Shown: positions 6,401-59,779 of the stretch, in pieces
Numbering within the stretch: position 1 is the stretch's first letter
Layout: the number at the start of each line of letters is the position of its first letter
Program-made: the position numbers and the translations under genes
From: a candidate division WOR-3 bacterium UBA2202
GTDB lineage: Bacteria > Hydrothermota > 32-111
Direction: 5' to 3'
Assembly (NCBI GenBank): GCA_002327905.1
Contig: DCUY01000067.1
Span: 10,764-74,763, forward strand
Length of the DNA stretch: 64,000 nt
Notes under the pieces: model-generated
Seen by the model: only the letters and a program-made list of their open reading frames with translations
What the model was told of the DNA's origin: nothing
Databases searched by the model: none

Positions 6401-6900
6401 TAACAAAGAGAGAGTTTTCGGCTTTGGCTGAAAAGAGAGTTGAAGAGATGTTTACTGACAAGATGTCCCTCTTCACAAACAAAGATCTCCTTCTTTTCAA
6501 CATATGCAATATGTTCATTCTCTCCATAGACAAGCTGTGGATAGAGCAATTGTACGAACTTGATGCGATAAAGGAGGGAATTTCTCTCAGAGGATATGCG
6601 CAGAGAGACCCTCTTGTAGAATTCAAAAAAGAGGCATATCAGTTGTTTAATATACTTATGGACAGCATGTATAAAGATTTCTGCGAGAAGTTTTTCTCGG
6701 CAGTTCAGAATGCAAAAGTACAGCAGGATAAGCCCCGCAGAATTGATACTGTAAAAAGAGAGATATCGGCAAATTCGAGTGAAGATGAGGAAACAAAAAA
6801 GAAACCTGTTGTAAGAGAGGATAAAAAAATCGGAAGAAATGATCCGTGTTGGTGCGGAAGCGGAAAAAAATACAAGAACTGCCACGGCAGAAATGTATGA
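3415..6900 (+). CDS. secA: Preprotein translocase ATPase SecA (long form with insertions)
   Basis: Walker A MATGEGKT, VNDYLARRD, DEVDSVLIDEARTPLIISG, GRGTDIKLG and ESRRIDRQLRGRSGRQGDPG motifs. C-terminal zinc-binding tail CWCGSGKKYKNCHG. 1161 aa, with an enlarged preprotein-binding domain and an insertion in NBD2. Confidence 0.95.
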   Translation: MNILSKLFPSYNQRKVNDLKKIVVEINSKYEDLLSKQDVNPSAMTLEFKERLKNGETPDDIIMDAFALVKFVMKRLSDEKYEYEESDMKFRWEMVPYDVQIAGSLSLHYGNIVEMATGEGKTLVAVMPLYLNSLTGDGSCLVTVNDYLARRDRAWMKPVYDKLGVTVGIIQMGMDPPERRFNYNCDITYVTNNEFGFDYLRDNMAYQKSEKVHRDMFNFAIIDEVDSVLIDEARTPLIISGMPLGGSDEKRTEMQYKSLSSSVNQFVRSQKEIIKNIYDKSKRLYDEGKYDEAVVGFLTVKRGFPKMKEIVATMQNAEILSKMERMENVLIRDKMIHTLDAELLYSIEEKSSAVTITDKGEDYFEKVHSDENFFSTPELSIEFKKIEDETEDIEERAKRKAEIMQNYAERSEYIHALHQLLKAHTLFERDVEYIVQSGKIVIVDEHTGRLMPSRRFSEGLHSAIEAKENVSIQEETKTLATITLQNLFRMFSKLSGMTGTAETEASEFMHIYKLPVTVIPTNRPVIRNDSNDLLFIRKEEKIKHIVEKIVKLHNAGVPLLVGTASVQSSEYLDSTLKLKKDMAGKPIKYNILNARHHEQEARIISEAGMQGAITIATNMAGRGTDIKLGSTIEMLPERSALIQSLHVKNNLKKKAAVILEDKKSMEFITYLLENDSYLKEKSIYFKTGLEGGDDLISIADGYRVGEFSDCFKITIPSPAKKNQRNVCISFTETGDCSEYVPAGLFVLGTEKHESRRIDRQLRGRSGRQGDPGASLFTVSLEDDLMRIFGNEKMSDMIRRLESLSSKETSISHRLLTTSIESAQKRIENLNFERRKYLLEYDDVINKQREIVYQLRNFFLERKPPLEFIDRGTFSQNTAALKERLLEAIKTDGDAGVKRELEKFSSFMNSGEIDISGEEASRTDFEEILHKRISEKFSSNMQEVKDYILENIPPIASAFIDSEILDNTPFEEWEFDRINEWFLNYFKITFKRTENEITKREFSALAEKRVEEMFTDKMSLFTNKDLLLFNICNMFILSIDKLWIEQLYELDAIKEGISLRGYAQRDPLVEFKKEAYQLFNILMDSMYKDFCEKFFSAVQNAKVQQDKPRRIDTVKREISANSSEDEETKKKPVVREDKKIGRNDPCWCGSGKKYKNCHGRNV

Positions 6901-8864
6901 AAGATAAGAATGAAATAAAGAACAGAATTGATGAATTAAGAAGACTGATTGCCAAATATGATTACAATTACTATGTTCTTGACTCTCCGCTTGTTGAGGA
7001 CTATGAATATGACAATTTGTACAAAGAGTTGAAGATCCTTGAAGATGTGAACCCTGAGTTTGACTCGCAGGATTCCCCCACAAAAAGAGTCTCTGAGCAA
7101 AACATAGGCGGTTTTGAAAAATTCACCCACTCGCCGAGAATGTACTCACTTGACAATACATACAATGATAATGAACTTGAATCTTTCCACAAAAGAATAA
7201 CGAACGAACTGCATACCGGTTTTTCGTATTCCATAGAACCGAAGATAGACGGAGCGGCAATATCCATTATATACAGAGATTCTCTTTTTTTCAGGGCATT
7301 GACGAGAGGAGACGGAGAGACAGGCGACAATGCCACGGAGAATATCAGAACAATCAGAGACCTTCCATTGATGCTTAAGAAAAAAATCACAGGCGATATT
7401 ACAGTCAGAGGAGAGGTGTTCTTCACTAAGAAGAGATTTGAAAAATTATCGGAGACATACCCTTTTTCCAATGCGAGAAATGCCGCTTCAGGCACTCTCA
7501 AACTCTTAAATCCGAAAGAGGCATCCGTAAGAAGACTCTCCGTGCTGATTCACACTGTAGTCACGCCGATTGCTGAGACCCACATTGAAACTCTCGCGGC
7601 TCTTGAAGAGCTCGGACTGCCTGTAGTGAAGGTTCTTGCAGAAGCAAAGAATTTTTCTGAATTAATAAAAGCAAAAGACGATTTCGAGAAGAGCCGTTTT
7701 TCACTTCCCTATGAAACGGACGGAATAGTCGTGAAAGTGAATCAGCTTGAAAAGAGAGAGCAGATAGGATTCACAAACAAATCTCCAAAGTGGGCATTTG
7801 CATTCAAATACGCTCCAAAGAGAGCTGTAACTAAACTTGAATCAGTCTCCTTTCAGGTGGGCAGAACAGGAGTGATTACTCCAGTGGCGAATCTCTATCC
7901 GGTGGAAATCTCAGGCACAATTGTCAAAAGAGCCACTCTTCACAATTTTGAAGAGATTGACAGGCTCGGGCTCAAGATTTCAGACACTGTTGAAATAGAG
8001 AAGAGCGGAGAGATAATCCCCAAAGTGATAAAGGTTTTAAGGGAAAACAGAACAGGAACAGAGGAAGATATAAAGAGGCCTGTTCACTGCCCCTCATGCA
8101 ATGAAATGCTTGTAAAGTACGAAGATGAAGTCGCCATCAGATGCATAAATAAAAACTGCCCCGAACAGATAGAATTGTCGCTTATTCATTTTGCCTCCAA
8201 AGGCGCCATGAATATTGAAAATATGGGGCCTTCAATCATCAGCAGGCTTATAGAAAAAGGCCTTGTAAAATCCATATCCGATATATTCAATCTTAAAAAG
8301 GATGATTTGCTCACAATAGACAGAATAAAATCAAAGAGCGCCGAGAATCTCATCAATGCAATTAAAATCTCAAAGAGGCAGTCTCTTTCAAGATTTATAT
8401 ACTCACTTGGAATAAGGAATATCGGAGAATACGCTTCAATGCAACTTGCAGAGAAATATCATAATATCGATAATTTTATGAATGCTGAATATGATGATCT
8501 TATAACTGTCAAAAATATCGGAGACGAATCCGCCAAGGCAATAATACTATTCTTCTCAAATGAGAGCAATGTGCATGAGGTGCGCAAAATAATCAATTCA
8601 GGCTTGGTTTTTAATTCAAATAAGATTTCAAATTCCCTCAGCGGGGCATCTTTTGTGATAACAGGAACTCTGAAGGGATTTACCAGAGATGAAGCGCGCG
8701 AGTTTATTATTTCAAACGGAGGCACAGTTCAGAATGAAGTTTCCAAAAATACAATGTATCTTCTTGTAGGAGAGAAACCGGGGTCCAAAAAGGCAAAAGC
8801 CGAAAAACTTTCAGTAAAAATAATAAATGAAGATGAACTCAAGGAGATGGCAGGTACAAAATGA
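6897..8864 (+). CDS. ligA: NAD-dependent DNA ligase
   Basis: KIDG adenylation motif (EPKIDGAAISIIY), a Zn-finger Cys cluster (CPSCNEMLV...CINKNCPEQ), HhH repeats and a C-terminal BRCT (FVITGTL). Start reassigned to the ATG at 6897, which overlaps the secA stop as ATGA. The ORF-track start at 6846 is in frame but lies inside secA. Confidence 0.9.
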   Translation: MKDKNEIKNRIDELRRLIAKYDYNYYVLDSPLVEDYEYDNLYKELKILEDVNPEFDSQDSPTKRVSEQNIGGFEKFTHSPRMYSLDNTYNDNELESFHKRITNELHTGFSYSIEPKIDGAAISIIYRDSLFFRALTRGDGETGDNATENIRTIRDLPLMLKKKITGDITVRGEVFFTKKRFEKLSETYPFSNARNAASGTLKLLNPKEASVRRLSVLIHTVVTPIAETHIETLAALEELGLPVVKVLAEAKNFSELIKAKDDFEKSRFSLPYETDGIVVKVNQLEKREQIGFTNKSPKWAFAFKYAPKRAVTKLESVSFQVGRTGVITPVANLYPVEISGTIVKRATLHNFEEIDRLGLKISDTVEIEKSGEIIPKVIKVLRENRTGTEEDIKRPVHCPSCNEMLVKYEDEVAIRCINKNCPEQIELSLIHFASKGAMNIENMGPSIISRLIEKGLVKSISDIFNLKKDDLLTIDRIKSKSAENLINAIKISKRQSLSRFIYSLGIRNIGEYASMQLAEKYHNIDNFMNAEYDDLITVKNIGDESAKAIILFFSNESNVHEVRKIINSGLVFNSNKISNSLSGASFVITGTLKGFTRDEAREFIISNGGTVQNEVSKNTMYLLVGEKPGSKKAKAEKLSVKIINEDELKEMAGTK

Positions 8865-10198
8865 AAATTATTCTTTCAGGATACAATGTCGACAGAGACG
8901 CCTTAAAAGAAAGTTCTGCAACTCCGGAGACTATTTCAGCCGCATACGCAAGAATATCAAGGTCTGAAAAGACAATTCCAGAGCTTAGGCGCGAGGCGAG
9001 AGCGGATGTGGCAAAGGCAAGAGCGTCAAATGAAAAGATTGTCTTCGGTCTGGGCCATTCTTCAATAGCTGAACATGCCGTATTTAATTTTGACCTTATG
9101 GGAATTTCAAGAATTGCCATTGAATACATTCAAAGCCACAGAATCGCTTCTTATACTGAAAAATCACAGCGCTATGTCTCTCTGGCGAGCGGATACCATA
9201 TTCCCGAAGAGCTTGAATCGAACGGAAAACTGCAGAATGAATACAGAAAATTCTGCGATATGTGTTTTGACTCGTATTTCAAAGCACAGAAGGTTCTGTC
9301 TGAAAAGGATCTCAGCCGCACAAAGACCAATGAGGATGCGCGATATATGCTTCCACTCGCAACATACACTCAATGCGGACTCACAATAAACGGCAGATCT
9401 CTTGAATATCTTATATCGAACTTAAGGTCGCAAAACTCCGCAGAGCTTGAGAATATAGGGAAAATGATGTTATCTGAAATAGAGGGAATAGCTCCTTCAA
9501 TTATAAAATACACTTCCGGGCGTAATATATTCAAGAAAGAATCTGCTGTAATAAAGTATTCGTTTCCTAATGACAATCTTCAGATAATTTCATTCGATAA
9601 GAATCAGGAATCTTCAGTTATTTCAGCTCTGAAATTCAGAAAGCACGGAACTAAATTCAATGCAAGATTTAAGGCTGGAGATGAAGAAAAGGAAGAATTG
9701 AAGAGACTTCTGTTCTCTCTTAATGAGTTTGACAGAGTGCCCAGAGAATTTGAATTTCCAGAAATCACATTCATAGTATACTGCTCTGCCTCGTGTTTCG
9801 CTCAGCTGAAAAGGCACAGAATGTCAACTGTAATCCCGCAGTCATACTCTTACAGGGAGAAGCCTTTTATTCCCCACTCTTTCAGGAATACGCCTCTTGA
9901 AGAAATGCTTATAAATCTTCATAAAAAATCCGTATCATTAAGCCGTAAAATGGAGAGCATAAATCCTGACATTCTGCAGTACACGGCATTGAATGCATCA
10001 AAGAGGGCTGTTCTGGTGAAGATGAACTGCCGCGAACTATATCACTTTGTGAGATTAAGATCGGATAAACATGCTCAACTTGAAATTCGAGAAATATCCG
10101 ATAAACTTGCCTTTGAAGCAAACAGAATTTCTCCTGTTTTGTATTCCTACCTCTCGGGAAAAGACGAATTTAAAATATTAAAAGAGAAATCCGTCTAA
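8861..10198 (+). CDS. thyX: Flavin-dependent thymidylate synthase, tandem-domain form
   Basis: 445 aa. ThyX RHR-x7-S signature in the C-terminal half (LKRHRMSTVIPQS), and a second, degenerate copy in the N-terminal half (QSHRIASYTEKSQRY). ATGA overlap with ligA. Confidence 0.8.
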   Translation: MKIILSGYNVDRDALKESSATPETISAAYARISRSEKTIPELRREARADVAKARASNEKIVFGLGHSSIAEHAVFNFDLMGISRIAIEYIQSHRIASYTEKSQRYVSLASGYHIPEELESNGKLQNEYRKFCDMCFDSYFKAQKVLSEKDLSRTKTNEDARYMLPLATYTQCGLTINGRSLEYLISNLRSQNSAELENIGKMMLSEIEGIAPSIIKYTSGRNIFKKESAVIKYSFPNDNLQIISFDKNQESSVISALKFRKHGTKFNARFKAGDEEKEELKRLLFSLNEFDRVPREFEFPEITFIVYCSASCFAQLKRHRMSTVIPQSYSYREKPFIPHSFRNTPLEEMLINLHKKSVSLSRKMESINPDILQYTALNASKRAVLVKMNCRELYHFVRLRSDKHAQLEIREISDKLAFEANRISPVLYSYLSGKDEFKILKEKSV

Positions 10199-16090: not shown

Positions 16091-16518
16091 ATTACAATCC
16101 TCAAAAGGGCATTTGCGGCAATTCCCGAGATAATGTCATCCATTATGATCCCTGCAGTCCCTTTAATGTTCTCTGATTTTCTTATGAAGAGAGGTTTCGC
16201 AATGTCCATATATCTGAAAAGAATAAACGCAGAGGCGAATATAAAAACCGAATGGGGCAAAAATAAAAGCGAAACAATCATTCCAATAAGCTCGTCCGCC
16301 ACAATTTTAGAATCATCTCCTTTGAAAGAACCCGCATACTCTATCGAAATGGAAGACAGAAGCAGAACATTTGAAAAGATCAGAAACATCTGAATATCGC
16401 CAAACCTCATAAAATAAGCAATGAGGCAGAAAAGGAGGGATACTATGGTTCCGCCGCCCTTAATATTGCCAATATAAAAACATGAAGCGATAATGTGATA
16501 TATTTTTTTAAAAATCAT
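16078..16518 (-). CDS. pgpA: Phosphatidylglycerophosphatase A
   Basis: 146 aa membrane protein. The N-terminal FYIGNIKGGGTIVSLL matches the PgpA family. Confidence 0.75.
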   Translation of the reverse strand: MIFKKIYHIIASCFYIGNIKGGGTIVSLLFCLIAYFMRFGDIQMFLIFSNVLLLSSISIEYAGSFKGDDSKIVADELIGMIVSLLFLPHSVFIFASAFILFRYMDIAKPLFIRKSENIKGTAGIIMDDIISGIAANALLRIVIWIL

Positions 16519-17246
16519 TTATACATCTCTGGAATTCTCTTCAATTCCCTGATGTCCTCTATCGAAAACAGATTTAAGTGGTTGAGAATGATTATTATCT
16601 TTTTTATTTTTCCATCTTTTATTCCTATTCCGGATACAAATGAAAGCAATTTTTCAGGAAGAAACGGCGGAATCTGTTTTATGTCAGTCTCTTTGAAGCG
16701 AGCAATTCCGACAAGATAATCCACATAGATTCCAACTCTGAGATCATCAATCTGAAGAATTATTATTGAACCGTCTTCTTTGCGGTCGTCTTTCATGCCG
16801 AATTTTTTTCTGAAATCAACAAGAGGAATAACTCCGTCCTTCATATTTGTTATTCCGAAAAACAGGTCGCTCTTCACTCCGACATCCAATGGCTTCTTAT
16901 ATTTTATTATCTGCCTCACAAAATCACTGTCAATTGCATATTCTTCATTCTTAAGAAGAAATGTCACAAACTCTTTTACCGAATCAGCATCCTCTTTTTT
17001 TTCTTGAGACTGATTCATGCGCCGAATATCGGCAATTTCAGATTTTACCTGCGACATTTCAATTTTCTTTTCTGCCTTCACCGGCTCCTTATGCTCAAGA
17101 TGCTCTGATTTCTCCTGTTTGGAAGCAATTTCAGGTTTGGACAGTTTCACTAAAGGTCCCTTTTCTTCAGACTTTTTAGGCTTGATCTTCTTGTCCGGTT
17201 TATCGTTCTGAAGAATATCCTGAAGGTCAATTTTCTTTTTCATCAT
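16515..17246 (-). CDS. CheW-like coupling protein with a Lys/Glu-rich N-terminal extension
   Basis: C-terminal CheW domain (EYAIDSDFVRQII...GVIPLVDFRKKFG...IIILQIDDLRVGIYVDYLVGIARF). The first ~90 aa are a K/E-rich low-complexity region. Confidence 0.75.
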   Translation of the reverse strand: MMKKKIDLQDILQNDKPDKKIKPKKSEEKGPLVKLSKPEIASKQEKSEHLEHKEPVKAEKKIEMSQVKSEIADIRRMNQSQEKKEDADSVKEFVTFLLKNEEYAIDSDFVRQIIKYKKPLDVGVKSDLFFGITNMKDGVIPLVDFRKKFGMKDDRKEDGSIIILQIDDLRVGIYVDYLVGIARFKETDIKQIPPFLPEKLLSFVSGIGIKDGKIKKIIIILNHLNLFSIEDIRELKRIPEMYK

Positions 17247-18072
17247 TTTCTCCGGTTAATTCTTTTAGCTTTTCTTCCGCTTTCTGAGCCCATCTGTTGT
17301 ATCTGTTCTTCTTTATAAGGTCATTAAGGGTCTTTATGCCCTTGTTTTCAAGGCCCGATTCAAAGAATGCTATTCCGAGATAATAATACGCCTCCATATG
17401 ATTGGGTCCGAGCTCAATGGTCTTGCGGAAGAATTTTATCGCGTCATCATACATCTCCCTGTCTCTATAAATAAGTCCAAGGTAAAAATTTGCATATATC
17501 AGCGACATTTTATCGTCAGTAGTCTTTAATACTGAAGTAAGATGCTCAATAGCCTCTCCAAATATTCCTTTTTTGAAACACACATATCCCAGATTGTTTT
17601 TTGCTATTGCATTATCAGGGTCAATCTGAAGAACCTTCTGAAATATTGACATCGCATCATCATACCTCTCCTTGTGAAGATATGCCCATCCCAAAAGCCC
17701 GAGAGATTTCACATCATTCGGGGCAAGACTCATTGCTTTTTCAAGTATTTCGACAGCATCATCATACTGCTCGTCAACCATGAAATTCCATCCCTTGTCT
17801 ATATATGTTGTCAAATCAACAGGAGAAATTTTCATTGACTGCACAAATGACTGCAGGCCCTCTTTGTTTATATTCGGATTCTTTATTCTCTTTGCCAGCT
17901 GTTTTATCCTCCCGTCAGCATGTTTTATAAAAGCATTCATTGATAAAATCTGCTTATAGACTTCCATAAGCTCGTTTTTTATATGCTCCTCTCCGTATTT
18001 TCCGGTATCAATTACACTCTCTATTCTGTCGAGATGAGCATCAATTTCCTTTTTTGCATCAGTCCATTTCAT
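17227..18072 (-). CDS. TPR repeat protein
   Basis: Multiple 34-aa repeats of the W-LG-Y / A---F---L---P-N type (LGWAYLHKERYDDAMSIFQKVLQIDPDN and others). Confidence 0.7.
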   Translation of the reverse strand: MKWTDAKKEIDAHLDRIESVIDTGKYGEEHIKNELMEVYKQILSMNAFIKHADGRIKQLAKRIKNPNINKEGLQSFVQSMKISPVDLTTYIDKGWNFMVDEQYDDAVEILEKAMSLAPNDVKSLGLLGWAYLHKERYDDAMSIFQKVLQIDPDNAIAKNNLGYVCFKKGIFGEAIEHLTSVLKTTDDKMSLIYANFYLGLIYRDREMYDDAIKFFRKTIELGPNHMEAYYYLGIAFFESGLENKGIKTLNDLIKKNRYNRWAQKAEEKLKELTGENDEKEN

Positions 18073-19102
18073 CTGTCAGCTCCTCTATCTTTTCAGAGAT
18101 TCTGTCTTTGTCCATTATAAAATCGACACTTCCCGTATCAATTGCGGCTTTCGGCATACCGAAGACTACTGATGAATCTTTTGATTCCGCTATGTTTGTT
18201 CCGCCCATTTTTTTTATTATGAAGACTCCTTCAGAGCCGTCCTTCCCCATTCCTGTCAAAATGACTCCTATAATTCTTTTTCTGAAGTATCTCACTGCGG
18301 AGAGCATCATTATGTCAGCCGCAGGTTTGACGGAATGGTACGGAGGGTCATCCGACAAATGTACAATTCCGCTTTCATCAAAAATCATGTGTTTGCCGCC
18401 CTGAGCGATAATACAGTCTCCGTTTTTCAAGCCGCAGTTTTCGTATGCTTCAAAAACATTCAAACCCGACATGGTGTTCAGTCTCTCGGAAAATGATTTT
18501 GTGAAACCGGCAGGCATGTGCTGGACAACTGCGACAGCAGCGTTCAGCTCCGGCTTTATGCGCGGTATTATCTCCATAAGGGATTTCGGTCCGCCCGTTG
18601 AAGATGCTACAGCGACAAGATTGACTGCATTTGTCTCCTGCTTTGCCTTGCCGCCCACCCTCTCGGCTACTGCAGAAGAAGATTGAAATAGTCTGCTGAT
18701 ATTTGATTTCAAAGCGCATTGCATTTTTTGAAGTATTTCATCCCTCTTCTCCGTGATGTCCAAAGATATTGAACCTGACGGTTTTTCCACTATATCAAAT
18801 GCTCCGAATTCAAGAGCTTTAAGAGCTATCTTGGAGCCTGCTTTTGAATACGCGCTCACTATGATTACAGGTACGGGCTTTATACGTAGAATCTGCTGAA
18901 GACTTATCAGTCCGTTTATCTTCGGCATTTCAATGTCAAGTGTCACAATATCAGGATCAAGAATCCTGAATTTTTCTATCGCCTCCGCTCCGTCTGCCGC
19001 TTCGCCCACTACCATGAATGCCTTGTCTGAATTGATTATGTCCTTCAATATCTGCCGCATCAACAATGAATCATCAACGACAAGAACTCTGTTGATTTTC
19101 AA
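18059..19102 (-). CDS. cheB: Chemotaxis response regulator protein-glutamate methylesterase
   Basis: N-terminal receiver (VLVVDDSLLMRQ...DIVTLDIEMPKINGL) and C-terminal methylesterase (VAVASSTGGPKSL...GMPKAAIDTG). Confidence 0.9.
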   Translation of the reverse strand: MKINRVLVVDDSLLMRQILKDIINSDKAFMVVGEAADGAEAIEKFRILDPDIVTLDIEMPKINGLISLQQILRIKPVPVIIVSAYSKAGSKIALKALEFGAFDIVEKPSGSISLDITEKRDEILQKMQCALKSNISRLFQSSSAVAERVGGKAKQETNAVNLVAVASSTGGPKSLMEIIPRIKPELNAAVAVVQHMPAGFTKSFSERLNTMSGLNVFEAYENCGLKNGDCIIAQGGKHMIFDESGIVHLSDDPPYHSVKPAADIMMLSAVRYFRKRIIGVILTGMGKDGSEGVFIIKKMGGTNIAESKDSSVVFGMPKAAIDTGSVDFIMDKDRISEKIEELTDEMD

Positions 19103-19578
19103 TATTGAATCTCCCCGAGTTTATATGATGTCACTTTAATCTTTCCTGTCTTAATTGTGAATTCGACCGACCTGCTGTAATCGCTCCCCGTGTCCTCAGC
19201 TGTCACAGGTATTCTGTTCTCTCTCAGCATTTTTTTTGCCATTTCAATATTTCTGTATCCTATTGATTCTTCAACATTTTTTATAAAAATGGAGAACATG
19301 TTGGCCCCTCCGACTACTTTTGCCTCCATTCTGTATTTTCTTGCTCCAAGCTGTTCCATCTCCATAATTAGATTGGACAGGCCAGTGTCGCAGTATTTGT
19401 ACGGATTAAAGAAAGCCTTGGAAAATACTTTGCTCGGCAGCATAAAATGTATCATTCCTCCTATTTTTTTTTCTCTGTCAAAGAGAGTTACCGCAACGCA
19501 GGAGCCGAGTCCTATCGTTTTAAGCACATCCTCTTCAAATGCTACATTGGCGTCAGCTATTCTGATGTTAATAATCAA
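19099..19578 (-). CDS. cheD: Chemoreceptor glutamine deamidase CheD
   Basis: 159 aa. The GLGSCVAVTLFD...GGMIHFMLPS signature matches CheD. Confidence 0.85.
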   Translation of the reverse strand: MIINIRIADANVAFEEDVLKTIGLGSCVAVTLFDREKKIGGMIHFMLPSKVFSKAFFNPYKYCDTGLSNLIMEMEQLGARKYRMEAKVVGGANMFSIFIKNVEESIGYRNIEMAKKMLRENRIPVTAEDTGSDYSRSVEFTIKTGKIKVTSYKLGEIQY

Positions 19579-20371
19579 TTTTTCTAAAGACCCTTTCCTT
19601 TCTGTTTATTGTTTCAAACATGTCTTTTACATAGCCCGTAAGAATTTCGACTTTTCCGAGGACAAGATATCCGTTCTGCTTCAATATTTTATGAAAGTTT
19701 GATATAATGCTCTCCTGAAAATCCTTTGAAAAATATATCAGAATGTTTCTGCATATTATCAAATCAAATTTCCCCATTGTAAGAAGGGAGTCGCTCTCCT
19801 TTATATCCATAATTATAAAATCCACATTTCTCTTTATATCTTCATCAAGAATGTAATGCTGTCCGCTCTTCTTAAAGTATCTCGCCACCTCAGAATGCTT
19901 CAGCTCCATAAAAGAGTAATCGCTGTAAATTCCTATTTTTGCCTTTTCAATGGCGTCTGCGTCAACATCTATCCCCACTATTTCATAATCTCCGTCAGAG
20001 TTTCTGAAAAAATTCTTCAGTATCATTGAAAGAGTATACGGCTCTTCTCCTGTGGAGCATCCTGCGCTTAAAATGCGCACCTTCTGATTTTTCCGCACAA
20101 TGTCTTTGAATATTACATCTCCAAGAAAATCAAATGTCTCTCTGTTTCTGAAAAATCTCGTCACATTTATTGTAAGAGTGTCTTTCAGCTTCATCATCTC
20201 AGCTTGATTGTACCGGAGATATTCAAGATACTCTCTGTAGCTCTTCTGGTCAGTATATCTCATTCTGACAGCTATTCTTCTCTTGAACGGCCTCTCTTTG
20301 TATAGGTTTCCGTCTATGCTGATATGCTTCTTTATATAATCAATAAGAAACTGATAATCATTGTCAACCAT
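19568..20371 (-). CDS. cheR: Chemotaxis protein methyltransferase CheR
   Basis: TRFFRNRETFDFL N-terminal helical domain, and the SAM-binding motif VRILSAGCSTGEEPYTLSMIL. Confidence 0.9.
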   Translation of the reverse strand: MVDNDYQFLIDYIKKHISIDGNLYKERPFKRRIAVRMRYTDQKSYREYLEYLRYNQAEMMKLKDTLTINVTRFFRNRETFDFLGDVIFKDIVRKNQKVRILSAGCSTGEEPYTLSMILKNFFRNSDGDYEIVGIDVDADAIEKAKIGIYSDYSFMELKHSEVARYFKKSGQHYILDEDIKRNVDFIIMDIKESDSLLTMGKFDLIICRNILIYFSKDFQESIISNFHKILKQNGYLVLGKVEILTGYVKDMFETINRKERVFRKIDY

Positions 20372-21962
20372 TTCTTACGGTCTCCAGAGTGCGTTTCAAA
20401 ATTTCATTGTCAGGCTGAAGTTCAAGAGCCTTTTCCCAATAAACCAAAGCATCCTGCTTTTTTCCCTTTCTATAGCGGAGATTTCCGATTTTATACAGTA
20501 TGTCAAAATCCGCTTTTCCGATATTGACTATGTCTTCAAGCACTTGTTCCGCCGCGTCAAAATTCTTTTCATTGAAATAATATTCCACTAAAGCTTTGAA
20601 AGGAACAGGGTCGGAATTTGAAGTCTCGACCGCTTTTTTAAACATACTCTCTGCGGACTCAATTTTTCCGCTTATTGTGTATATTTCTCCTAAATTGTAA
20701 TAAACCTGCCATATTGTATTGTCCTGTTTTATAAGTGAAAAGAGAATATTTGTAGCTTCGCTCACCATTCCGTTTTCAAAATATACAAGCGCAAGAAAAA
20801 ATGATGCGTATTTCAGGTTTTGGTCTATTTTTAACGCCATTTTAATTCTCTCTTCTGCCTCTGAGAAGAGATTCATTTTGAATGAGAGTATTCCATAATT
20901 AGCAAGAATCTTGGCATTCTCAGGTTCGATCTTCAAAGCTCTCTCATAAAATTCATCCGCCCTTTCGTAATTATTCAGCCTCTCATAAGTGAGAGCTATA
21001 TTGTTGAAAAGGGCGATATTTCCGATTCCAAGCTTCAAGAGCTCCTCAAAAGATTGAAGAGCCTTCTCATAGTCTTTCAATCTGAAGTAAATAAGCCCTA
21101 TATAGAAATATGCTTTGATATTGGTTTTGTCTATCTGTATTATATGCCTGAATTCCCGCAGAGCCTCTTCATACATTTCAGTCAGAAGAAATGCAAGCCC
21201 TAAATTGTGGTGCTCCTGCACTTTTGTCTGAATGTCTGTGGACATCTCTATCTGCTTCTCTTCTCCTGAATAAATGTATCCCACTTTCAGAAGAGTGTAT
21301 ATGGCCTTTCCCGTTTCATATCTTCCCAAAACTGATTTGTCAAAGATCTCTCTTATTGAGAGCCTGTTATTTACAAGAGAATAAATGTATCTCTCGTCAT
21401 CCTCCTGAAGAGTCTTCTCATCCTTTATGCTCGTCTTTACCAGAATGGTCTTCTCATTCGGAAGTTCTTTCTCAATTATCGACCACTCATCGATTTTTCT
21501 CGCCTCCTCAAGAAGTATATCATCCGCTTCAAGCTCCACAGTGATGGTTTCGGATACAGGCGGAATATCCGGTTCAAAATTGAAGAACCCGTCTTTCCAT
21601 GTCAGAAGAGTGAATATTGAATCTATTATTTGTTTTTTTATTCTGTCCACCAAAATATCAAGAGTTATGTATCCCATCTCTATAAGAAGGTCTCCAAGCC
21701 TTTTCAGCCCCTTCATCTCCTCTTGAGCCTCCAAAGCCTTCTCCAAATTCTCTTTTGAAATATCTCCGTACTTCACAAGCAGATTGCCAAGCCTCTCTTC
21801 CCTGTTTACTATTGAGCAGTAAATAATCTTTCCGTCCCTGAAGAAAATATCACCAAAATTCTTCTTGTCGGAAACACTCAAAACTCCGGTCTTCCTTCCT
21901 AAAGAAAGCAGTTGAATCACATCAGGAAGAGACGCCTCTTTGAGGTTTCCCCGTATGCTCAT
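20364..21962 (-). CDS. DUF4388-like N-terminal domain fused to a TPR-repeat array
   Basis: The N-terminal ~100 aa (GNLKEASLPDVIQLLSLGRKTGVLSV...GDIFFRDGKIIYCS...ERLGNLLVKYG) fit the DUF4388 pattern. The C-terminal half holds at least seven TPR motifs. Overlaps cheR and the upstream ATPase gene. Confidence 0.55.
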   Translation of the reverse strand: MSIRGNLKEASLPDVIQLLSLGRKTGVLSVSDKKNFGDIFFRDGKIIYCSIVNREERLGNLLVKYGDISKENLEKALEAQEEMKGLKRLGDLLIEMGYITLDILVDRIKKQIIDSIFTLLTWKDGFFNFEPDIPPVSETITVELEADDILLEEARKIDEWSIIEKELPNEKTILVKTSIKDEKTLQEDDERYIYSLVNNRLSIREIFDKSVLGRYETGKAIYTLLKVGYIYSGEEKQIEMSTDIQTKVQEHHNLGLAFLLTEMYEEALREFRHIIQIDKTNIKAYFYIGLIYFRLKDYEKALQSFEELLKLGIGNIALFNNIALTYERLNNYERADEFYERALKIEPENAKILANYGILSFKMNLFSEAEERIKMALKIDQNLKYASFFLALVYFENGMVSEATNILFSLIKQDNTIWQVYYNLGEIYTISGKIESAESMFKKAVETSNSDPVPFKALVEYYFNEKNFDAAEQVLEDIVNIGKADFDILYKIGNLRYRKGKKQDALVYWEKALELQPDNEILKRTLETVRNG

Positions 21963-23633
21963 TTACACCTCAAACTCGACATACAATCTGTCATGTTCGT
22001 TAACCCATTCCTTAATAAGCTTGGAAGTGTCATATTCGCTCTTTTTCCTTGAGGAGATTTTTTTTGATTCTGTCTGAGGAAATACTTTGTTGATTGCTTC
22101 AACTGTCGGTGCGCCGCCGGGAGAAAAAGATGCGAGCTCCGCAAATTTTTCATCAACGCTTGAAAGCGGAGTTTCTATGGCATCAAGCATATAATTCATC
22201 AGAAAATCATTTGTCTGAATACCTGCTCTTGCGAACATACTCTTGTAGACATTTTTTTTGATAAAAAGAGAGGTCGGCTGAATATTGTAGGATTGAAATT
22301 TATTAAGGAAATTCAACAGCTCTCTGTCATCAATGCTGAATTTTCTGTACATTGAAATCACTTTAGGCACATTATTCATAATAATATTTTTTAGGACAAG
22401 CTTGTTGGCTTTATTCTCAAAGAGTAAATCAAAATCATCTATCAAAATTATGCTGAGCTCATCCATATATTTCATGACATATGAATTGTTCACTGCTGAA
22501 TCGATATTGGTTTTGTCCAATAGAATGATTCTCTTATCCGAAAATCTGTTGCAGATGCTGTTTAAGAGATGCGTCTTTCCTGTTCCGTTTGTTCCTGTCA
22601 ATATAACTATTTTATCGGCATTTTCACTATTCAGTATTTCTGTTATTTTGTTGTATGCCGACCTGTTCGTCGCATCCGTTATGAAGGATTCATAATTCAT
22701 CGAAAGCTTTGTACTGCTTCTGAAAACTCTGAGGTATTTAATTTTATCTTTTAAAAATTCTATCTTTTCCCGCAGTTCAACCAGTCTGTCAGGGTCAAAA
22801 AGCATATCCTCTATCTCTCTTGATTCCTTCTTAAACTCCTTGACATTAAGAAGCCCGTATTCCTTATGGAGTTCAACAAGATTCTTCACCTTCTCCGTAT
22901 ATTCGGAGAACTCGCTCTTAATCAATGAAATGTCATTCACATTTATTATATTCTTTAGTCTCTCCACATTGAAGCCCTTCATCTCCCAAATATAGAGTTT
23001 TTCAATATACTCGTCTCTTTTTTCCCCCTCTCTCAGATTTTCCTGCACTCCGGCCTCTCTCTTTACTTCTCTTATAAAATCGGCAAAATCCTTGACCGGA
23101 TTCTCTTCCTTCTTTTCCGGGCTGAAGGTGAGATCAAAAAATTTCCCTGCCATCAGAGTGTTTTTTGTCCTTAAATCTATGGTTATATCCTCCAGACTTT
23201 TCTTTGTAGTGACCAGAAGATATGATGTTGAATGAAGATTGTTGATTATTTCGAGGATTATGTCATGAACAACAGTATTCTTCTCCACCTGCTCAAAATT
23301 TTCTATTATCAAAAGATTTGAATAGAGAAGGAATCTCTTATACTTCATCAAAGCATTGAATTTCATCATCTCAACCATCTCTTTAAGATCAATTCTGAAA
23401 ATATAAAAATCAGGAAATGCATTTGATATTGACTCTGCCATTTTGTCGGCAAATATTTCTCCAGACTGGTCATCAGAACGAACTACAATTACTCTTGAAG
23501 TCAATGTGCCTGTGCTTACTGCATAAGAGAGCTCGGATTTCAGAAAAGCATTTTCCGGAAGTTCAGTGTCGCCGCTGTGCTTCTGTCTGGTTCCGAATGT
23601 CTCCTGAAACTCCTTTATATCATTTTCATTCAT
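21963..23633 (-). CDS. Tandem DnaA/Hda-like AAA+ protein: N-terminal degenerate copy plus C-terminal intact ATPase module
   Basis: C-terminal module has Walker A ILTGTNGTGKTHLLNSICN, Walker B SIILIDDFDLLFENK and a sensor-like stretch, closely resembling the DnaA/Hda AAA+ core. N-terminal residues ~40-170 repeat the layout (FLLYSNLLIIENFEQV...YLLVTTKKSLEDI) but lack a P-loop. TGA/ATG junction with mglA. Confidence 0.5.
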   Translation of the reverse strand: MNENDIKEFQETFGTRQKHSGDTELPENAFLKSELSYAVSTGTLTSRVIVVRSDDQSGEIFADKMAESISNAFPDFYIFRIDLKEMVEMMKFNALMKYKRFLLYSNLLIIENFEQVEKNTVVHDIILEIINNLHSTSYLLVTTKKSLEDITIDLRTKNTLMAGKFFDLTFSPEKKEENPVKDFADFIREVKREAGVQENLREGEKRDEYIEKLYIWEMKGFNVERLKNIINVNDISLIKSEFSEYTEKVKNLVELHKEYGLLNVKEFKKESREIEDMLFDPDRLVELREKIEFLKDKIKYLRVFRSSTKLSMNYESFITDATNRSAYNKITEILNSENADKIVILTGTNGTGKTHLLNSICNRFSDKRIILLDKTNIDSAVNNSYVMKYMDELSIILIDDFDLLFENKANKLVLKNIIMNNVPKVISMYRKFSIDDRELLNFLNKFQSYNIQPTSLFIKKNVYKSMFARAGIQTNDFLMNYMLDAIETPLSSVDEKFAELASFSPGGAPTVEAINKVFPQTESKKISSRKKSEYDTSKLIKEWVNEHDRLYVEFEV

Positions 23634-24232
23634 CTTTTATTATCATACTTCCTTGTCAATTGCTTTATCACCGAAAACATCGCGTCTTTCAATGTCTCAA
23701 TCACCCCGGTTCCCTTTGTTGCAATAGCTTCAAAAGCCTTCCAATCGCTCCTTATCTGAAGAGCGCTCTTAATTACATTTGTGTCAACTGCATTCGGCAG
23801 GTCTCTCTTATTATACTGAATCACCAAAGGCATTGTCTCTATGCTGAATCCGTGCTCCTTAAGATTGATGGCAAGATTTTCAAAAGATTCTATGTTATCC
23901 TCCATTCTATCCGCCTGAGAATCCGCTACAAAGACAACTCCGTCAGCTCCCTGAAGAACAAGTTTTCTTGTAGAGTCGTAATATACCTGTCCGGGAACAG
24001 TATAGAGCTGAAATTTCGCATTGAAATTTCCTATTTTCCCCACATCAAATGGAAGAAAATCAAAGAAGAGCGTCCTGTCCATCTCAGTTGCAAGAGATGT
24101 CATTTCCCCTCTCTTTTCAATTGGAATTTTGCTGAAGATATACTGCAGGTTGGTTGTCTTGCCCGACCTTCCCGGTCCGTAGTAAACAACTTTGCAGATA
24201 ATCTCTTTTTTTGCGTAGTTTACCAATGACAT
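23630..24232 (-). CDS. mglA: MglA-family Ras-like small GTPase
   Basis: Near-collinear with Myxococcus MglA: KVVYYGPGRSGKTTNLQYIF (P-loop), TLFFDFLP (switch I), YTVPGQVYYDSTRKLVLQGADGVVFVADSQ (switch II, with intrinsic Arg and Gln), IQYNKRDLPNA (NKxD). Start set at MSLVNYAKKEI (24232) by alignment to MglA N-termini. The ORF-track start at 24268 is also possible. Confidence 0.9.
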   Translation of the reverse strand: MSLVNYAKKEIICKVVYYGPGRSGKTTNLQYIFSKIPIEKRGEMTSLATEMDRTLFFDFLPFDVGKIGNFNAKFQLYTVPGQVYYDSTRKLVLQGADGVVFVADSQADRMEDNIESFENLAINLKEHGFSIETMPLVIQYNKRDLPNAVDTNVIKSALQIRSDWKAFEAIATKGTGVIETLKDAMFSVIKQLTRKYDNKR

Positions 24233-24239
24233 AATTACC

Positions 24240-25343
24240 TCAATCTCTGAATGTGTTATTGAAAGCATCGCCTTCGTTTGACTCTATTCCTCTCAGTTTC
24301 AGCTTGAATTCGTCAACATTAGTTACTGACTGCAATGCGTCGTCATATGATATTATTCCTGACTTATATAAACGTATAATGGATTGATCAAAAGTGTGCA
24401 TCTGGTACTGCTGACCCTCTTCTATGGCTGACGGAATAAGAAGAGTCTTTATCGGGTCAAGAAGATAATCCTTTATTGTAGGGGTGTTAATCATCACTTC
24501 GGTGGCTGGCACCCTGCCCTTTCCGTCAACTCTCGGAAGAAGCCTCAATGAGAGAACTCCCACAAGAGTGGTCGCCAGCAAAACTCTTATATGTTGCTGT
24601 TGATGAGGAGGATAGAATGAAAGTATTCTGTTTATAGTCTCTGAAGCATTCAAAGTGTGCAGTGTTGACATCACAAGATGTCCCGTGTCAGCCGCTTTGA
24701 TTGCGACATCCATTGTATCCATATCTCGAATCTCTCCCATCAGAATAATGTCCGGATCCTGCCTCAGCACATGCTTTAAGGCATTTTCATAAGAGAATGT
24801 GTCATTTCCCACCTCTCTCTGCGAAATAACGGATTTTTTGTCTCTGAAGAGATACTCAATCGGGTCTTCAATCGTAATGATATTTCTGGCTGCATTTTCA
24901 TTTATGTATTCAATCATTGCCGCAAGAGTTGTTGATTTTCCGCTTCCGGTTGTTCCTGTGGTGAGTATCATTCCTCTCGGCCTCATAACGACCTCTTTTA
25001 ACACCGGAGGCAGATTGAGCTCGTCAATTGTCTTTGCGGATATGGGGATTGTGCGCATTGCAATCGCAACACTTCCCCTCTGAAGATAAACATTGACCCT
25101 GAATCTTGAAAGACCGGCGACTCCTATTGCAAAGTCTATTTCTTTTTTGGCAGTGAATTCATCCTGTTGCTCCTTATTCATAATCTTCAATGCAATCTTC
25201 CGCAATTCATCAGGACTCATCGGCTCGTCTTTTACAATGTTCAGCTTCCCGTCAATTCTAAGAATCGGAGGAGTGCCTGCCTTAAGATGCAGATCTGATG
25301 CTCCGTCCTTAACCATTTTTTCAAGCAATGATTTTAATTCCAT
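24240..25343 (-). CDS. pilT: Type IV pilus retraction ATPase PilT
   Basis: 367 aa. N-terminal GASDLHLKAGTPPILRIDGKL, Walker A GTTGSGKSTTL, Asp box and His box (TLHTLNASETINRIL). PilT-type length, with no long N-terminal domain. Confidence 0.9.
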   Translation of the reverse strand: MELKSLLEKMVKDGASDLHLKAGTPPILRIDGKLNIVKDEPMSPDELRKIALKIMNKEQQDEFTAKKEIDFAIGVAGLSRFRVNVYLQRGSVAIAMRTIPISAKTIDELNLPPVLKEVVMRPRGMILTTGTTGSGKSTTLAAMIEYINENAARNIITIEDPIEYLFRDKKSVISQREVGNDTFSYENALKHVLRQDPDIILMGEIRDMDTMDVAIKAADTGHLVMSTLHTLNASETINRILSFYPPHQQQHIRVLLATTLVGVLSLRLLPRVDGKGRVPATEVMINTPTIKDYLLDPIKTLLIPSAIEEGQQYQMHTFDQSIIRLYKSGIISYDDALQSVTNVDEFKLKLRGIESNEGDAFNNTFRD

Positions 25344-25915: not shown

Positions 25916-27565
25916 TTACCTCCGCTCTTTTTCTTTATCTTTTTCTTTTCTTTGGTTTATTATTTTAACCCAGTCATTGAAACTTGCTTTTGCAATGTAG
26001 GTTTGATCTCTCTTTGTCTCAGGCTTATCCTGTTTTTCGTCATGCTTCTCTTCTTCTCTCTCTTTAACAGTATTGTCTGAAGTCTTTGAATCTTCTTTTT
26101 TTTCTATTAATTTTGAATTTTCTTCTTTCTCTTCAGAAGCATTCTCCTGAACCTCGCTCTTTAAAATCTCGTCTTTCTCATCATCCTTCGTCTCTTCCCT
26201 CTCTGCCTCCTTTGCCTCTTCTTTTTCTATTTTAGAATCTTTTTGATTAAAATCATAATTGACTGCAGGAATCTCCTGCTTGGAAGTTTCGTCAAGTTTA
26301 TCAGCAAAATCGGAAGAAGGAGTTTCTGACATAGCAGTTCTGTCGGCGTATTTCTCCTCTGCGTCTTTGAATTCCTTTACCGTCATATCCTCTGATGACA
26401 GACTCTTATTGAGACGCTCAATGAATTCCGTCCGGCTTTTATTCTTCTTTTGCTCCTCTTCCTTGACAGTGTCAATATTGAATTCCTGTTTTGCTATTTC
26501 TTCATTTAAGAATCTAATCTTCTCTGCGTATTCCTCGCTCTCCGGATTATGTCTTAATAGCATTTGATATATCTCTATTGCCTTCTCGTATTTCTTCTGT
26601 TGAATATAAATCAATGCCATCTCTTTTGAATAAAAGAGCACTTTCTGCTTTCCCGGAAGGTCAAAAGGCACTACGGGTTTACCGCTGTCTGCCTCTTCCT
26701 TTTTCTTTGGTTTCGATATGTTGAAGTCCACTGAAGGATTTATGTACTTTGATTCATCAAGCATCTCTGTCTTTGATTCTTCTTTTGAGTCTTCCTTCAT
26801 CTTTTCTTTGGCTGTCTCTTTGATTTTCTCGGTGGATTCTTTTTTTTCTGCGGTCTTTTCTTCAGCAGTATGCTTCTCGGGGACCTTATTCTCTTTTGCT
26901 TCATCAGGTTTTGATTCTTTCGGATGTGATTCTTTTTCCTGTTTATTCTCTTTTTCCGCCTCTTTTATTTCAGATTCCTTTTTATCAGAATCGTCATCAA
27001 ATGTAATGAGGCTTGAGGAGTGCTGTATTATAAAATCATCAATATCGCGCCTCTCCTCTTTTGCGCTTTTAGGTTTATCATTCTCTTCTTCCTCCTTCTT
27101 CTTTTTCTTCAATTCCTCGCTTCTCTTTCTCTCCTTCTCCTGCTCATCAAGACGGCTCTTAAGAATTTTAACTTCCCTCTTTGCATTATCATTTGAAGGA
27201 TCAAGAAATAAAACATTATCGTAAAGTTTGTATGACTCTTCGAGATTTCCCTGGGTTTTTTTTATCTCCGCCAGAGAGAGAACGGCAGGAAGATTCTGAG
27301 GGTCCTTTGATATGACCTTTTCAAAAAGCTTTGAGGATTCATTGAAATTTCTTTTCTCTTTATAAGCCTTTGCCATAATAAGAAGAGCGGATAGATTGTC
27401 CGGAGCATACCTTAGCCCTTCCTTTATAACTTCAATGGTCTCATCTATCATTTCAAGTTTCAGATAGATATTGCCCAGTTTAATAAAAGCTTTGGACTTC
27501 GGATTCTTGGCAATCTCTTCCAATAATTCCTTAATCTCTTGTTCGAAACTGTTATATGAAGCCAA
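25916..27565 (-). CDS. TPR protein with long Lys/Glu-rich disordered regions
   Basis: N-terminal TPRs (LGNIYLKLEMIDETIEVIKEGLRYAPDN...). About 150 aa of K/E/D low complexity, then an internal TPR (ALIYIQQKKYEKAIEIYQMLLRHNPES), then another K/E-rich tail. No signal peptide. First gene of the long minus-strand operon. Confidence 0.6.
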   Translation of the reverse strand: MASYNSFEQEIKELLEEIAKNPKSKAFIKLGNIYLKLEMIDETIEVIKEGLRYAPDNLSALLIMAKAYKEKRNFNESSKLFEKVISKDPQNLPAVLSLAEIKKTQGNLEESYKLYDNVLFLDPSNDNAKREVKILKSRLDEQEKERKRSEELKKKKKEEEENDKPKSAKEERRDIDDFIIQHSSSLITFDDDSDKKESEIKEAEKENKQEKESHPKESKPDEAKENKVPEKHTAEEKTAEKKESTEKIKETAKEKMKEDSKEESKTEMLDESKYINPSVDFNISKPKKKEEADSGKPVVPFDLPGKQKVLFYSKEMALIYIQQKKYEKAIEIYQMLLRHNPESEEYAEKIRFLNEEIAKQEFNIDTVKEEEQKKNKSRTEFIERLNKSLSSEDMTVKEFKDAEEKYADRTAMSETPSSDFADKLDETSKQEIPAVNYDFNQKDSKIEKEEAKEAEREETKDDEKDEILKSEVQENASEEKEENSKLIEKKEDSKTSDNTVKEREEEKHDEKQDKPETKRDQTYIAKASFNDWVKIINQRKEKDKEKERR

Positions 27566-58633: not shown

Positions 58634-59779
58634 ATGTTGAACAAAGAGACAATACTCAATGAACTTATCAGCATATCCATTTTGATAAGCTCAAAATCCT
58701 CTTTAAATGACCTTCTTGACACTGTTTTGCTGAAAGCAAGAGAAATAACGAATTCGGATGCAGGGTCGCTGTACCTTAAAGAGGGAAATCGCCTGATATT
58801 CCTGATAACGCAGAATGATACTCTAAAAGATATAAATAAAAATTTCAAATCATACCCGATATATATTGACAAGCATTCTATAGCCGGTTACGCCGCTTTT
58901 ACAGGAGATATAATCAGAATAGACGATGTTTACAACATCCCCAAGGAGTATCCTTTTTCTTTCAATATTGAATTTGACCAAAACAATAATTATAAATCGA
59001 CATCTATGCTGACTATACCGATGAAGGATAATGAAAAAGAGGTCATAGGAGTTCTCCAGCTTATAAATGCCAAAGATAAAGATAACGAGACAGTCAGCTA
59101 TTCCGATGAAATTGAAAAAATAGTAGAGTCTTTCGCATCAATCGCCGCAGTGGCAATAAAAAATGTTCAGCTCAAGGACAGCATCAAAAGAGCTCATCTT
59201 GAGACAATTTACAGATTATCTGTTGCAGCAGAATACAAAGATACTGATACGGGAAGCCACATTAAAAGAATGAGCAAGTATTCGGAGATTATTGCAAGAA
59301 AAATGGGATTTGACAAAAATTACTGCGAACTCATTCTATATGCAAGCCCTCTTCATGACATAGGAAAGCTCGGCATTCCCGATGCAATTCTCACAAAACC
59401 CGCAAAACTCGACCCTGACGAGTGGGAGATGATGAAAAAACACACTGCAATGGGATACGAAATTCTAAAGGATTCTTCAGAGCATCTTATTAAATTTGCG
59501 GCATCAATCGCTTTGACTCATCATGAGAGATATGACGGGAACGGATATCCCAACAGACTCAAAGGAGACAATATCCCGATTGAAGGAAGAATTGTCTCTC
59601 TTGCGGATGTCTTTGACGCTCTTGCCACTAAAAGACCTTATAAGGAGCCTTGGCCACTGGACAAGATAATTGATTTGATTCAGGTGGAGAGAGACAAACA
59701 GTTTGACGCAAAGGTCATAGATGCTTTTCTTGACAGTCTTGATGAAGTTCTTGAAGTTCAGAGACGCCTTTCAGAATAA
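58634..59779 (+). CDS. GAF domain-containing HD-GYP c-di-GMP phosphodiesterase
   Basis: N-terminal GAF (SDAGSLYLKE...GVLQLINAK). C-terminal HD domain (LHDIGKLGIP) with HHERYDGNGYP, the GYP signature. Confidence 0.85.
   Translation: MLNKETILNELISISILISSKSSLNDLLDTVLLKAREITNSDAGSLYLKEGNRLIFLITQNDTLKDINKNFKSYPIYIDKHSIAGYAAFTGDIIRIDDVYNIPKEYPFSFNIEFDQNNNYKSTSMLTIPMKDNEKEVIGVLQLINAKDKDNETVSYSDEIEKIVESFASIAAVAIKNVQLKDSIKRAHLETIYRLSVAAEYKDTDTGSHIKRMSKYSEIIARKMGFDKNYCELILYASPLHDIGKLGIPDAILTKPAKLDPDEWEMMKKHTAMGYEILKDSSEHLIKFAASIALTHHERYDGNGYPNRLKGDNIPIEGRIVSLADVFDALATKRPYKEPWPLDKIIDLIQVERDKQFDAKVIDAFLDSLDEVLEVQRRLSE

Follow-up and report, generated by a model that had tools for sequence, protein, structure and literature searches.

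A stretch of 64,000 nucleotides from the candidate division WOR-3 bacterium UBA2202 (GenBank assembly GCA_002327905.1, contig DCUY01000067.1, positions 10,764 to 74,763 of the forward strand; hereafter the window) was analysed around one gene on its minus strand. The gene encodes a protein of 532 amino acids (aa) which combines an N-terminal PATAN (DUF4388) domain with a C-terminal array of tetratricopeptide repeats (TPRs), and which carries inside the PATAN domain a double motif of the type that binds cyclic di-GMP (c-di-GMP) in MshE. It is located in a run of genes for type IV pilus retraction, the small GTPase MglA, and chemosensory adaptation.

Domain architecture of the PATAN-TPR protein

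One identical protein and 40 further full-length homologues (525-546 aa) were found in public data, all with PF14332 and TPRs. This confirms the gene and its composition of two parts; the product is an uncharacterised adaptor protein. Named sources of the homologues were candidate division TA06 (67% identity), WOR-3, Cloacimonetes, and Gemmatimonadetes. The order of modules is PATAN with an inserted alpha-clip, a winged-helix-like domain, and eight TPR repeats:

20364..21962, minus strand: PATAN-TPR open reading frame (ORF), 532 aa, ATG start (ORF list, Pfam, AlphaFold2 model, 41 full-length homologues)
21465..21962, minus strand: PATAN/DUF4388 domain, residues 1-166 (PF14332, secondary structure of the model, invariant residues)
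21624..21803, minus strand: inserted alpha-clip, residues 54-113, with four helices as in MshEN_N; putative c-di-GMP site (NF053729, phmmer, Foldseek)
21723..21794, minus strand: motif 1, R57-Q80, RLGNLLVKYGDISKENLEKALEAQ (MshEN consensus)
21630..21701, minus strand: motif 2, R88-Q111, RLGDLLIEMGYITLDILVDRIKKQ, after a 7-residue spacer (MshEN consensus)
21243..21464, minus strand: small alpha/beta winged-helix-like domain, residues 167-240 (AlphaFold2 model, conserved stretch in relatives)
20367..21242, minus strand: TPR superhelix, residues 241-532 (Pfam TPR_1, TPR_2, and TPR_8; AlphaFold2 confidence above 90)

The whole protein was modelled with AlphaFold2 from a 44-sequence alignment, resulting in a mean confidence (predicted local distance difference test, pLDDT) of 88.8. 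A Foldseek search with this model returned TPR superhelices only (8-repeat consensus TPR, TPR domain of OGT; E about 1e-15 to 3e-15). For this reason, a separate model of residues 1-245 was made for the fold search of the PATAN part (predicted template modelling score 0.81).

The N-terminal domain matched Pfam family PF14332 (DUF4388, now PatA_N/PATAN) over residues 4-161 with E=2.1e-36 and 125.1 bits against a cut-off of 25, and the match spans the whole profile (positions 1-122 of 122). An earlier note, made from the sequence alone, had assigned the first ~100 aa to DUF4388. The identity of the domain was borne out; its extent has to be enlarged to ~160 aa, because a helical insertion of ~55 aa (residues 57-111) lies within the match. 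The core of the domain consists in the models of strands at residues 3-6, 26-31, 36-42, 45-51, and 126-131 and of helices at 12-21 and 146-166, and is interrupted by the alpha-clip. Residues G5, D14, Q17, G26, L28, G44, W122, G125, F129, and D158 are invariant.

PATAN domains may contain two inserted helical hairpins, the alpha-clip (Makarova et al. 2006, as reported in bioRxiv 10.1101/2021.06.11.447907). Such an insertion was found in the target, with helices 58-64, 70-82, 89-95, and 101-120 placed between strands 45-51 and 126-131.

Behind the PATAN domain, the same note had taken the remaining 400 aa as TPRs. A TPR array is present; it comprises ~290 aa only, since it is preceded by a small domain in its own right (residues 167-240). 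The array consists of eight helix pairs, repeated strictly every 34 residues from residue 282 on, plus a capping helix, and Pfam TPR families cover residues ~244 to 530. The small domain is built in the AlphaFold2 model from a strand (172-176), three helices (188-196, 203-209, and 214-227), and a second strand (230-235). The Pfam search gave no family match for it. Two relatives that lack TPRs, P0054 and P0122, also have the corresponding stretch next to PATAN, as does a clip-less PATAN paralogue of a Gemmatimonadaceae locus (L001).

Two other identities that the note had named for the N-terminal domain, receiver and PilZ, were excluded by sequence profiles: residues 1-245 gave no match to either family (Response_reg for the receiver) in Pfam even at E<=10, and neither fold occurred among the 50 PDB matches listed by Foldseek for the N-terminal model. 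A relationship of the PATAN core to roadblock/MglB-like domains was rejected at the level of sequence profiles, where the family of the clip-less PATAN paralogue, aligned by hhalign with MglB and with a 157-aa roadblock-like family, reached a probability of 0.3%; the weakly positive comparison was that of MglB with the 157-aa protein (E=1.6e-4). Weak Foldseek hits to NPRL2/Npr2 are the sole pointer to the possibility that the PATAN core could be a longin-like platform in contact with a small GTPase.

The alpha-clip as a candidate c-di-GMP site

The most informative feature, overlooked in the earlier note, is the MshEN_N-type c-di-GMP motif inside the PATAN domain. The MshEN consensus reads RLGxx(L/V/I)(L/V/I)xxG(L/V/I)(L/V/I)xxxxLxxxLxxQ, and in MshE of Vibrio cholerae each of two copies binds half a c-di-GMP molecule (PMC5013675). 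Motif 1 fits this consensus at all positions but 11; the deviations of motif 2 are Y at 11 and I at 21. Judged by its sequence, the unit thus has most, not all, of the defining features of MshEN_N.

Sequence and fold comparisons pointed in the same direction. The NCBIfam model NF053729 ("cyclic di-GMP-binding domain, MshE-related") matched residues 57-111 with 45.2 bits against a cut-off of 38. Residues 54-113, compared to PDB sequences by phmmer, matched PilF of Thermus thermophilus (6f8l, 1.8e-7), MshE-N (5htl, 1.7e-5), and PilB of Geobacter (5tsg, 2.1e-5). The best Foldseek match of the N-terminal model was c-di-GMP-bound MshE (5htl_B; 57 columns, root-mean-square deviation 1.0 Å, 40% identity, probability 1.00), followed by the c-di-GMP-bound GSPIIB domain of PilF (9gl5_A; 0.9 Å over 57 columns, probability 1.00). 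The four-helix bundle compared here is that of a predicted model of the target, not of a solved structure.

Conservation of the motifs was counted in 82 unique orthologues. In motif 1, R1, G3, L6, L17, and Q24 were each present in all 82. In motif 2, 81 orthologues had a basic residue at position 1 (56 R, 25 K), G3 and Q24 were kept in all 82, and L17 in 79. Positions 1 and 24 are the polar ligand-contacting ones of the motif. The double motif is not general to PATAN, since the pattern [RK]hG…Q was kept twice in just 49 of the 148 best-scoring PATAN representatives and the paralogue in L001 lacks any clip. Taken together, the motifs and the model indicate that the alpha-clip most likely binds one c-di-GMP molecule. 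The alpha-clip has been likened to the N-terminus of PilB in earlier work (bioRxiv 10.1101/2021.06.11.447907); a proposal of the PATAN alpha-clip as a c-di-GMP site was not found in the searchable literature.

Two further genes of the window bear on this point:

43756-45447, minus strand: PilB, type IV pilus extension ATPase (N-terminal canonical MshEN double motif with 5-residue spacer)
58634-59779, plus strand: GAF-HD-GYP protein (intact HD and HHE..DG.GYP motifs)

The double motif of PilB closely resembles the alpha-clip of the target, and the GAF-HD-GYP protein is a candidate c-di-GMP phosphodiesterase by its motifs. The presence of both genes makes c-di-GMP signalling plausible in the host and provides a pilus motor.

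Operon and conserved neighbourhood

In the window, the target belongs to a minus-strand run with the order TPR-rich 549-aa protein, EF-P, PilT, MglA, AAA+ ATPase, target, CheR, CheD, CheB, 281-aa TPR protein, and CheW:

25916-27565, minus strand: 549-aa protein encoded ahead of EF-P, pilT, and mglA; TPRs at the N-terminus and in the centre, with long low-complexity stretches rich in Lys and Glu between them
24240..25343, minus strand: pilT, type IVa pilus retraction ATPase (TIGR01420, 462 bits against a cut-off of 319)
23630..24232, minus strand: mglA (phmmer against solved MglA structures)
21963..23633, minus strand: DnaA/Hda-like AAA+ ATPase, 556 aa (Pfam Bac_DnaA, NCBIfam Hda; Walker A GTNGTGKT)
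19568..20371, minus strand: cheR, 267 aa (Pfam CheR and CheR_N)
19099-19578, minus strand: cheD (Pfam)
18059-19102, minus strand: cheB (Pfam)
17227-18072, minus strand: 281-aa TPR protein (Pfam)
16515-17246, minus strand: cheW (Pfam)

The junction sequences showed that the TAA stop of the AAA+ gene directly abuts the ATG of the target, and that the ATG of cheR overlaps the 3' end of the target by 8 nucleotides (nt). According to Pfam, the CheR of the window has no TPR of its own. The neighbouring GTPase is, by sequence comparison, a genuine MglA: phmmer gave E=2.7e-70 against MglA of Myxococcus xanthus (6h17) and 1.5e-66 against that of T. thermophilus (3t12). The alignment begins at residue 13 of the listed ORF (23630..24268), and translation of mglA probably starts at M13 of this ORF (ATG at 24232), with 7 nt between pilT and mglA. 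For the 556-aa AAA+ protein, no relative was found among PDB sequences, and its Gemmatimonadaceae homologue has 638 aa with two Bac_DnaA-like matches. We know of no role for an initiator-clade AAA+ protein in a motility or polarity operon.

Homologous loci were searched in a species-representative collection with one genome per species, in which at least 534 loci encode a relative. The best 80 loci were used as synteny sample; they are mostly from Gemmatimonadota, with WOR-3, Edwardsbacteria, Stahlbacteria, and others in addition. Neighbours were counted from a tblastn synteny table, limited in each case to loci with enough flanking DNA. The AAA+ gene was directly upstream of the PATAN-TPR gene in 72 of 74 loci, mostly with a 4-nt overlap or no spacer, and mglA was at most 4 kb upstream in 63 of 67. 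Upstream mglB (47 of 61) and cheA within 10 kb upstream (33 of 40) were also common. On the other side, cheR followed directly in 70 of 77 loci, and cheD was present downstream in 71 of 76. At least four of the 80 loci (L009, L068, L078, and L084) have no cheR, cheD, or cheB after the PATAN-TPR gene; in three of these the AAA+ gene lies directly upstream, and two have it together with mglA.

TA06, WOR-3, Edwardsbacteria, and Gemmatimonadota have a common gene order, and the succession cheD, cheB, TPR protein, and cheW of the window recurs in TA06 and Gemmatimonadota loci. Because the same order is kept in TA06 at 33-37% protein identity, the arrangement must be old. The AAA+ proteins of TA06 and Gemmatimonadota share 21% identity. 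A metagenome-assembled genome of Gemmatimonas (L036) is among those that contain the cluster. In Gemmatimonadaceae the order is CheA, CheC/X, 895-aa protein, clip-less PATAN protein, TPR protein, MglB, 157-aa protein, MglA, AAA+, PATAN-TPR, CheR, CheD, CheB, CheW, CheW, and TPR protein. The following part of this cluster refers to locus L001:

L001, 5019-7468: clip-less PATAN paralogue (277 aa), 268-aa TPR protein, MglB, and 157-aa roadblock paralogue

The 157-aa protein was recognised as a roadblock paralogue by the hhalign comparison with MglB given above, and the C-terminal half of the 268-aa protein appeared roadblock-like by eye. At the TA06 locus L005, a 489-aa protein with no Pfam match takes the place of the 549-aa protein of the window.

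PATAN genes near mglA and mglB have been recorded earlier (PMC4316618; bioRxiv 10.1101/2021.06.11.447907). No description of the conserved Che-MglAB-AAA+-PATAN-TPR cluster was found in the searchable literature.

A word-indexed homologue search with residues 1-245 yielded four proteins; an exhaustive search of representatives was used instead and gave 11,383 relatives. Among these, PATAN is also joined to longer TPR arrays (e.g. P0137, 1069 aa) and to CarboxypepD_reg-like C-terminal domains, or occurs in up to 5-6 tandem copies. The fusion of PATAN to TPRs, regarded as unusual in the earlier note, is in itself therefore not so, given also the number of loci that encode a relative. In the metagenomic proteins P0125-P0127 (1455-1492 aa), five or six PATAN stretches were seen by phmmer, and four DUF4388 stretches by Pfam on P0125. 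The metagenomic protein P0123 (392 aa), with Bac_DnaA and PATAN matches, was considered as a true fusion of the two partners, which would have spoken for a functional link, and rejected; it is probably a gene-call or frameshift artefact, as its sequence reads as a low-complexity, frameshifted run-through from the end of the AAA+ gene into the start of the PATAN-TPR gene.

Two genes elsewhere in the window were recorded in passing. SecA (3415-6900, plus strand; 1161 aa) is enlarged by ~200-aa insertions in its DEAD domain, and its P-loop domain has additional residues as well. The ORF of a ThyX-type thymidylate synthase (8861-10198, plus strand; 445 aa) contains two Thy1 stretches, which suggests a tandem duplication.

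Comparison with known systems and functional interpretation

The closest systems were compared in domain content and gene context. The PATAN domain with alpha-clip is shared with the cyanobacterial PatA-type (PATAN-REC) regulators PixG, PixE, LsiR, TaxP/PilG-like proteins, and PatA, which belong to chemotaxis-like systems steering type IV pili; in Synechocystis, the PATAN domain of such regulators binds PilB1 and PilC (bioRxiv 10.1101/2021.06.11.447907). The window protein has a winged-helix-like domain and eight TPRs instead of a receiver, and its gene lies beside mglA and the AAA+ gene. As Response_reg did not match, it is not a PatA-type response regulator and cannot act as a phospho-acceptor.

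The tandem 24-residue RLG...Q motif is common to the target and the MshEN_N receptors MshE of V. cholerae, PilF of T. thermophilus, and Bd2402 of Bdellovibrio. In MshE and PilF it is part of the N-terminus of a secretion ATPase, whereas in the target it sits within the PATAN domain. The nearest precedent for such a unit outside an ATPase is Bd2402 (REC, MshEN_N, and an unknown domain), which has been shown to bind c-di-GMP.

SgmX of M. xanthus and Bd2492 of Bdellovibrio bacteriovorus are, like the target, TPR proteins with a genetic link to MglA and type IV pili. Bd2492 has, in addition, a polar c-di-GMP receptor as a binding partner (PMC3983030, PMC7668184, PMC7519303), so that at the Bdellovibrio pole a TPR protein and a c-di-GMP receptor form a pair of separate proteins; in the target, both would be on one polypeptide. 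SgmX and Bd2492 are, however, all-TPR proteins which are encoded with tamAB-like genes (PMC3983030) and not next to mglA, whereas the target has PATAN and winged-helix-like modules before the TPRs, belongs to an mglA-AAA+-che operon, and has no TamAB genes among its neighbours. Set apart in this way by architecture and synteny, its membership in the SgmX/Bd2492 family is not demonstrable.

A TPR array together with CheR in a non-flagellar chemosensory cluster is also found in the CheR-TPR methyltransferases FrzF and WspC (PMC2535941, PMC3447774). In the window, array and methyltransferase are separate proteins: the gene of the array precedes cheR, and the array is fused to PATAN. The target is neither a PilZ protein nor a CheR-TPR fusion.

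From these data we favour, at about even chances, the reading as a cytoplasmic, c-di-GMP-responsive adaptor or scaffold of three modules in a conserved polarity module of chemosensory proteins, MglA, and type IV pili. The alpha-clip of the PATAN module would read c-di-GMP, and the eight-repeat TPR superhelix would dock protein partners. MglA, the Che adaptation enzymes, and the DnaA-like AAA+ ATPase encoded next to the target may be kept in one assembly by the TPR part, the PATAN part, or both. The PATAN domain may in addition contact the pilus motor, as PATAN does with PilB and PilC in Synechocystis. In this way, chemosensory state and c-di-GMP level could bias the place or the time of type IV pilus activity. 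The analysis establishes the domains, the conserved motif, its fold fit to c-di-GMP-bound MshE, the coupling in the operon, and the synteny; ligand binding, all protein contacts, and the effect on pili are inferred from these.

Several results weigh against this reading. On the side of ligand binding, position 11 of motif 1 is Asp and not hydrophobic, and the motifs are separated by 7 residues in the target and by 5-8 (most often 6) in the orthologues, compared to 5 in the 53-residue MshEN_N unit. Pfam MshEN (PF05157), which models the T2SSE_N1 half as well, a half that is absent in the target, did not match residues 1-245 or the isolated clip at E<=10. The assignment to c-di-GMP thus rests on NF053729, the PDB sequence hits, and the fold fit. 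Moreover, some motif-bearing proteins fail to bind c-di-GMP (PMC5013675). On the side of gene context, tblastn detected no mglB in the window, and no cheA or receptor gene was found near the window cluster. In a Cloacimonetes genome only the block PATAN-TPR-cheR-cheD is present, with no mglA within 10 kb and no AAA+ gene alongside. Finally, the synteny counts are not independent events, since the 80 loci are mostly from one phylum.

Among the alternatives, it is possible, at a rather low probability, that the protein is a direct, SgmX-like effector specific for the GTP state of MglA. Binding of MglA-GTP to the TPR array would then bring the PATAN domain to the pole or expose it there. In SgmX, three C-terminal TPRs are the binding site of MglA-GTP (PMC7668184), and a complex with MglA is also known for Bd2492 (PMC3983030). 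The earlier note had put the protein forward as a candidate MglA effector, and part of this proposal stands: the GTPase next door qualifies as a true MglA, and the frequent upstream mglA supports a functional link. The evidence for such an effector is, however, limited to gene neighbourhood, and the proposal is weakened by the architecture, which is not all-TPR, by the lack of tamAB synteny, and by the position of the AAA+ gene and cheR as closest neighbours. The Cloacimonetes gene, furthermore, is found with no mglA nearby. Equally good TPR candidates exist within the cluster, namely the 281-aa protein of the window and the 268-aa protein beside mglB in Gemmatimonadaceae. As partners of the target, CheR and the AAA+ protein are candidates as good as MglA.

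More doubtful is a role as a c-di-GMP-dependent regulator of receptor methylation, in which the TPRs would stand in for the CheR-fused TPRs of FrzF and WspC and the alpha-clip would add a second-messenger control as in MapZ. Site-specific methylation by FrzF is under the control of its TPR domain (PMC2535941), fusions of CheR to TPRs are a hallmark of non-flagellar chemosensory pathways (PMC3447774), and MapZ links c-di-GMP to CheR1 (PMC6370697). This would agree with the TPR-less CheR of the window, with the close coupling to cheR described above, and with the block that survives in Cloacimonetes with neither mglA nor AAA+. The near-invariant linkage to the AAA+ gene and to mglA is left unexplained by this role, and the loci which have lost cheR, cheD, and cheB, three of them with the AAA+ gene still in place, speak against it.

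It is unlikely that the protein is chiefly a partner, adaptor, or substrate of the DnaA/Hda-like AAA+ protein, with MglA and the Che genes as mere operon neighbours. The linkage to the AAA+ gene is the tightest of all and persists in loci that lost cheR, and the run-through P0123 again shows both genes abutting. The AAA+ protein is, on the other hand, poorly conserved between TA06 and Gemmatimonadota and has no counterpart beside the Cloacimonetes gene, and such a partnership explains little on its own because no motility function is known for an ATPase of this kind.

A generic TPR scaffold, with a neighbourhood of no functional meaning and a purely structural alpha-clip, is highly improbable. 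In its favour, TPR proteins are numerous, and some of the motif residues belong to the hydrophobic core. Against it, several phyla share the gene order while their proteins are 30-37% identical, and solvent-facing Arg and Gln positions which vary in other PATAN proteins are invariant here.

A further-reaching proposal, which we hold to be rather improbable, is that the PATAN-TPR protein and the DnaA-like AAA+ ATPase are a physical coupler through which chemosensory array and c-di-GMP would set the MglA/MglB switch, and hence the placement of pili, in Gemmatimonadota, WOR-3, TA06, and related phyla. To our knowledge, the chemosensory route to the MglA polarity switch has been worked out in Myxococcus only, where the genes are scattered. 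Here, the candidate parts (CheA, CheW, CheR/D/B, MglA, MglB, roadblock paralogues, AAA+ ATPase, and two PATAN proteins) are collected in one conserved multi-phylum operon, which provides a defined list of parts to reconstitute. If the coupler proposal is true, the PATAN alpha-clip would be a general and so far unrecognised setting for c-di-GMP reception.

The wider meaning depends on the alpha-clip. If it does not bind c-di-GMP, the protein would be an ordinary uncharacterised scaffold. If it does, it would provide a new receptor context, perhaps also for other PATAN proteins with the double motif, and a single polypeptide would explain the pairing of TPR protein and c-di-GMP receptor known from the Bdellovibrio pole.

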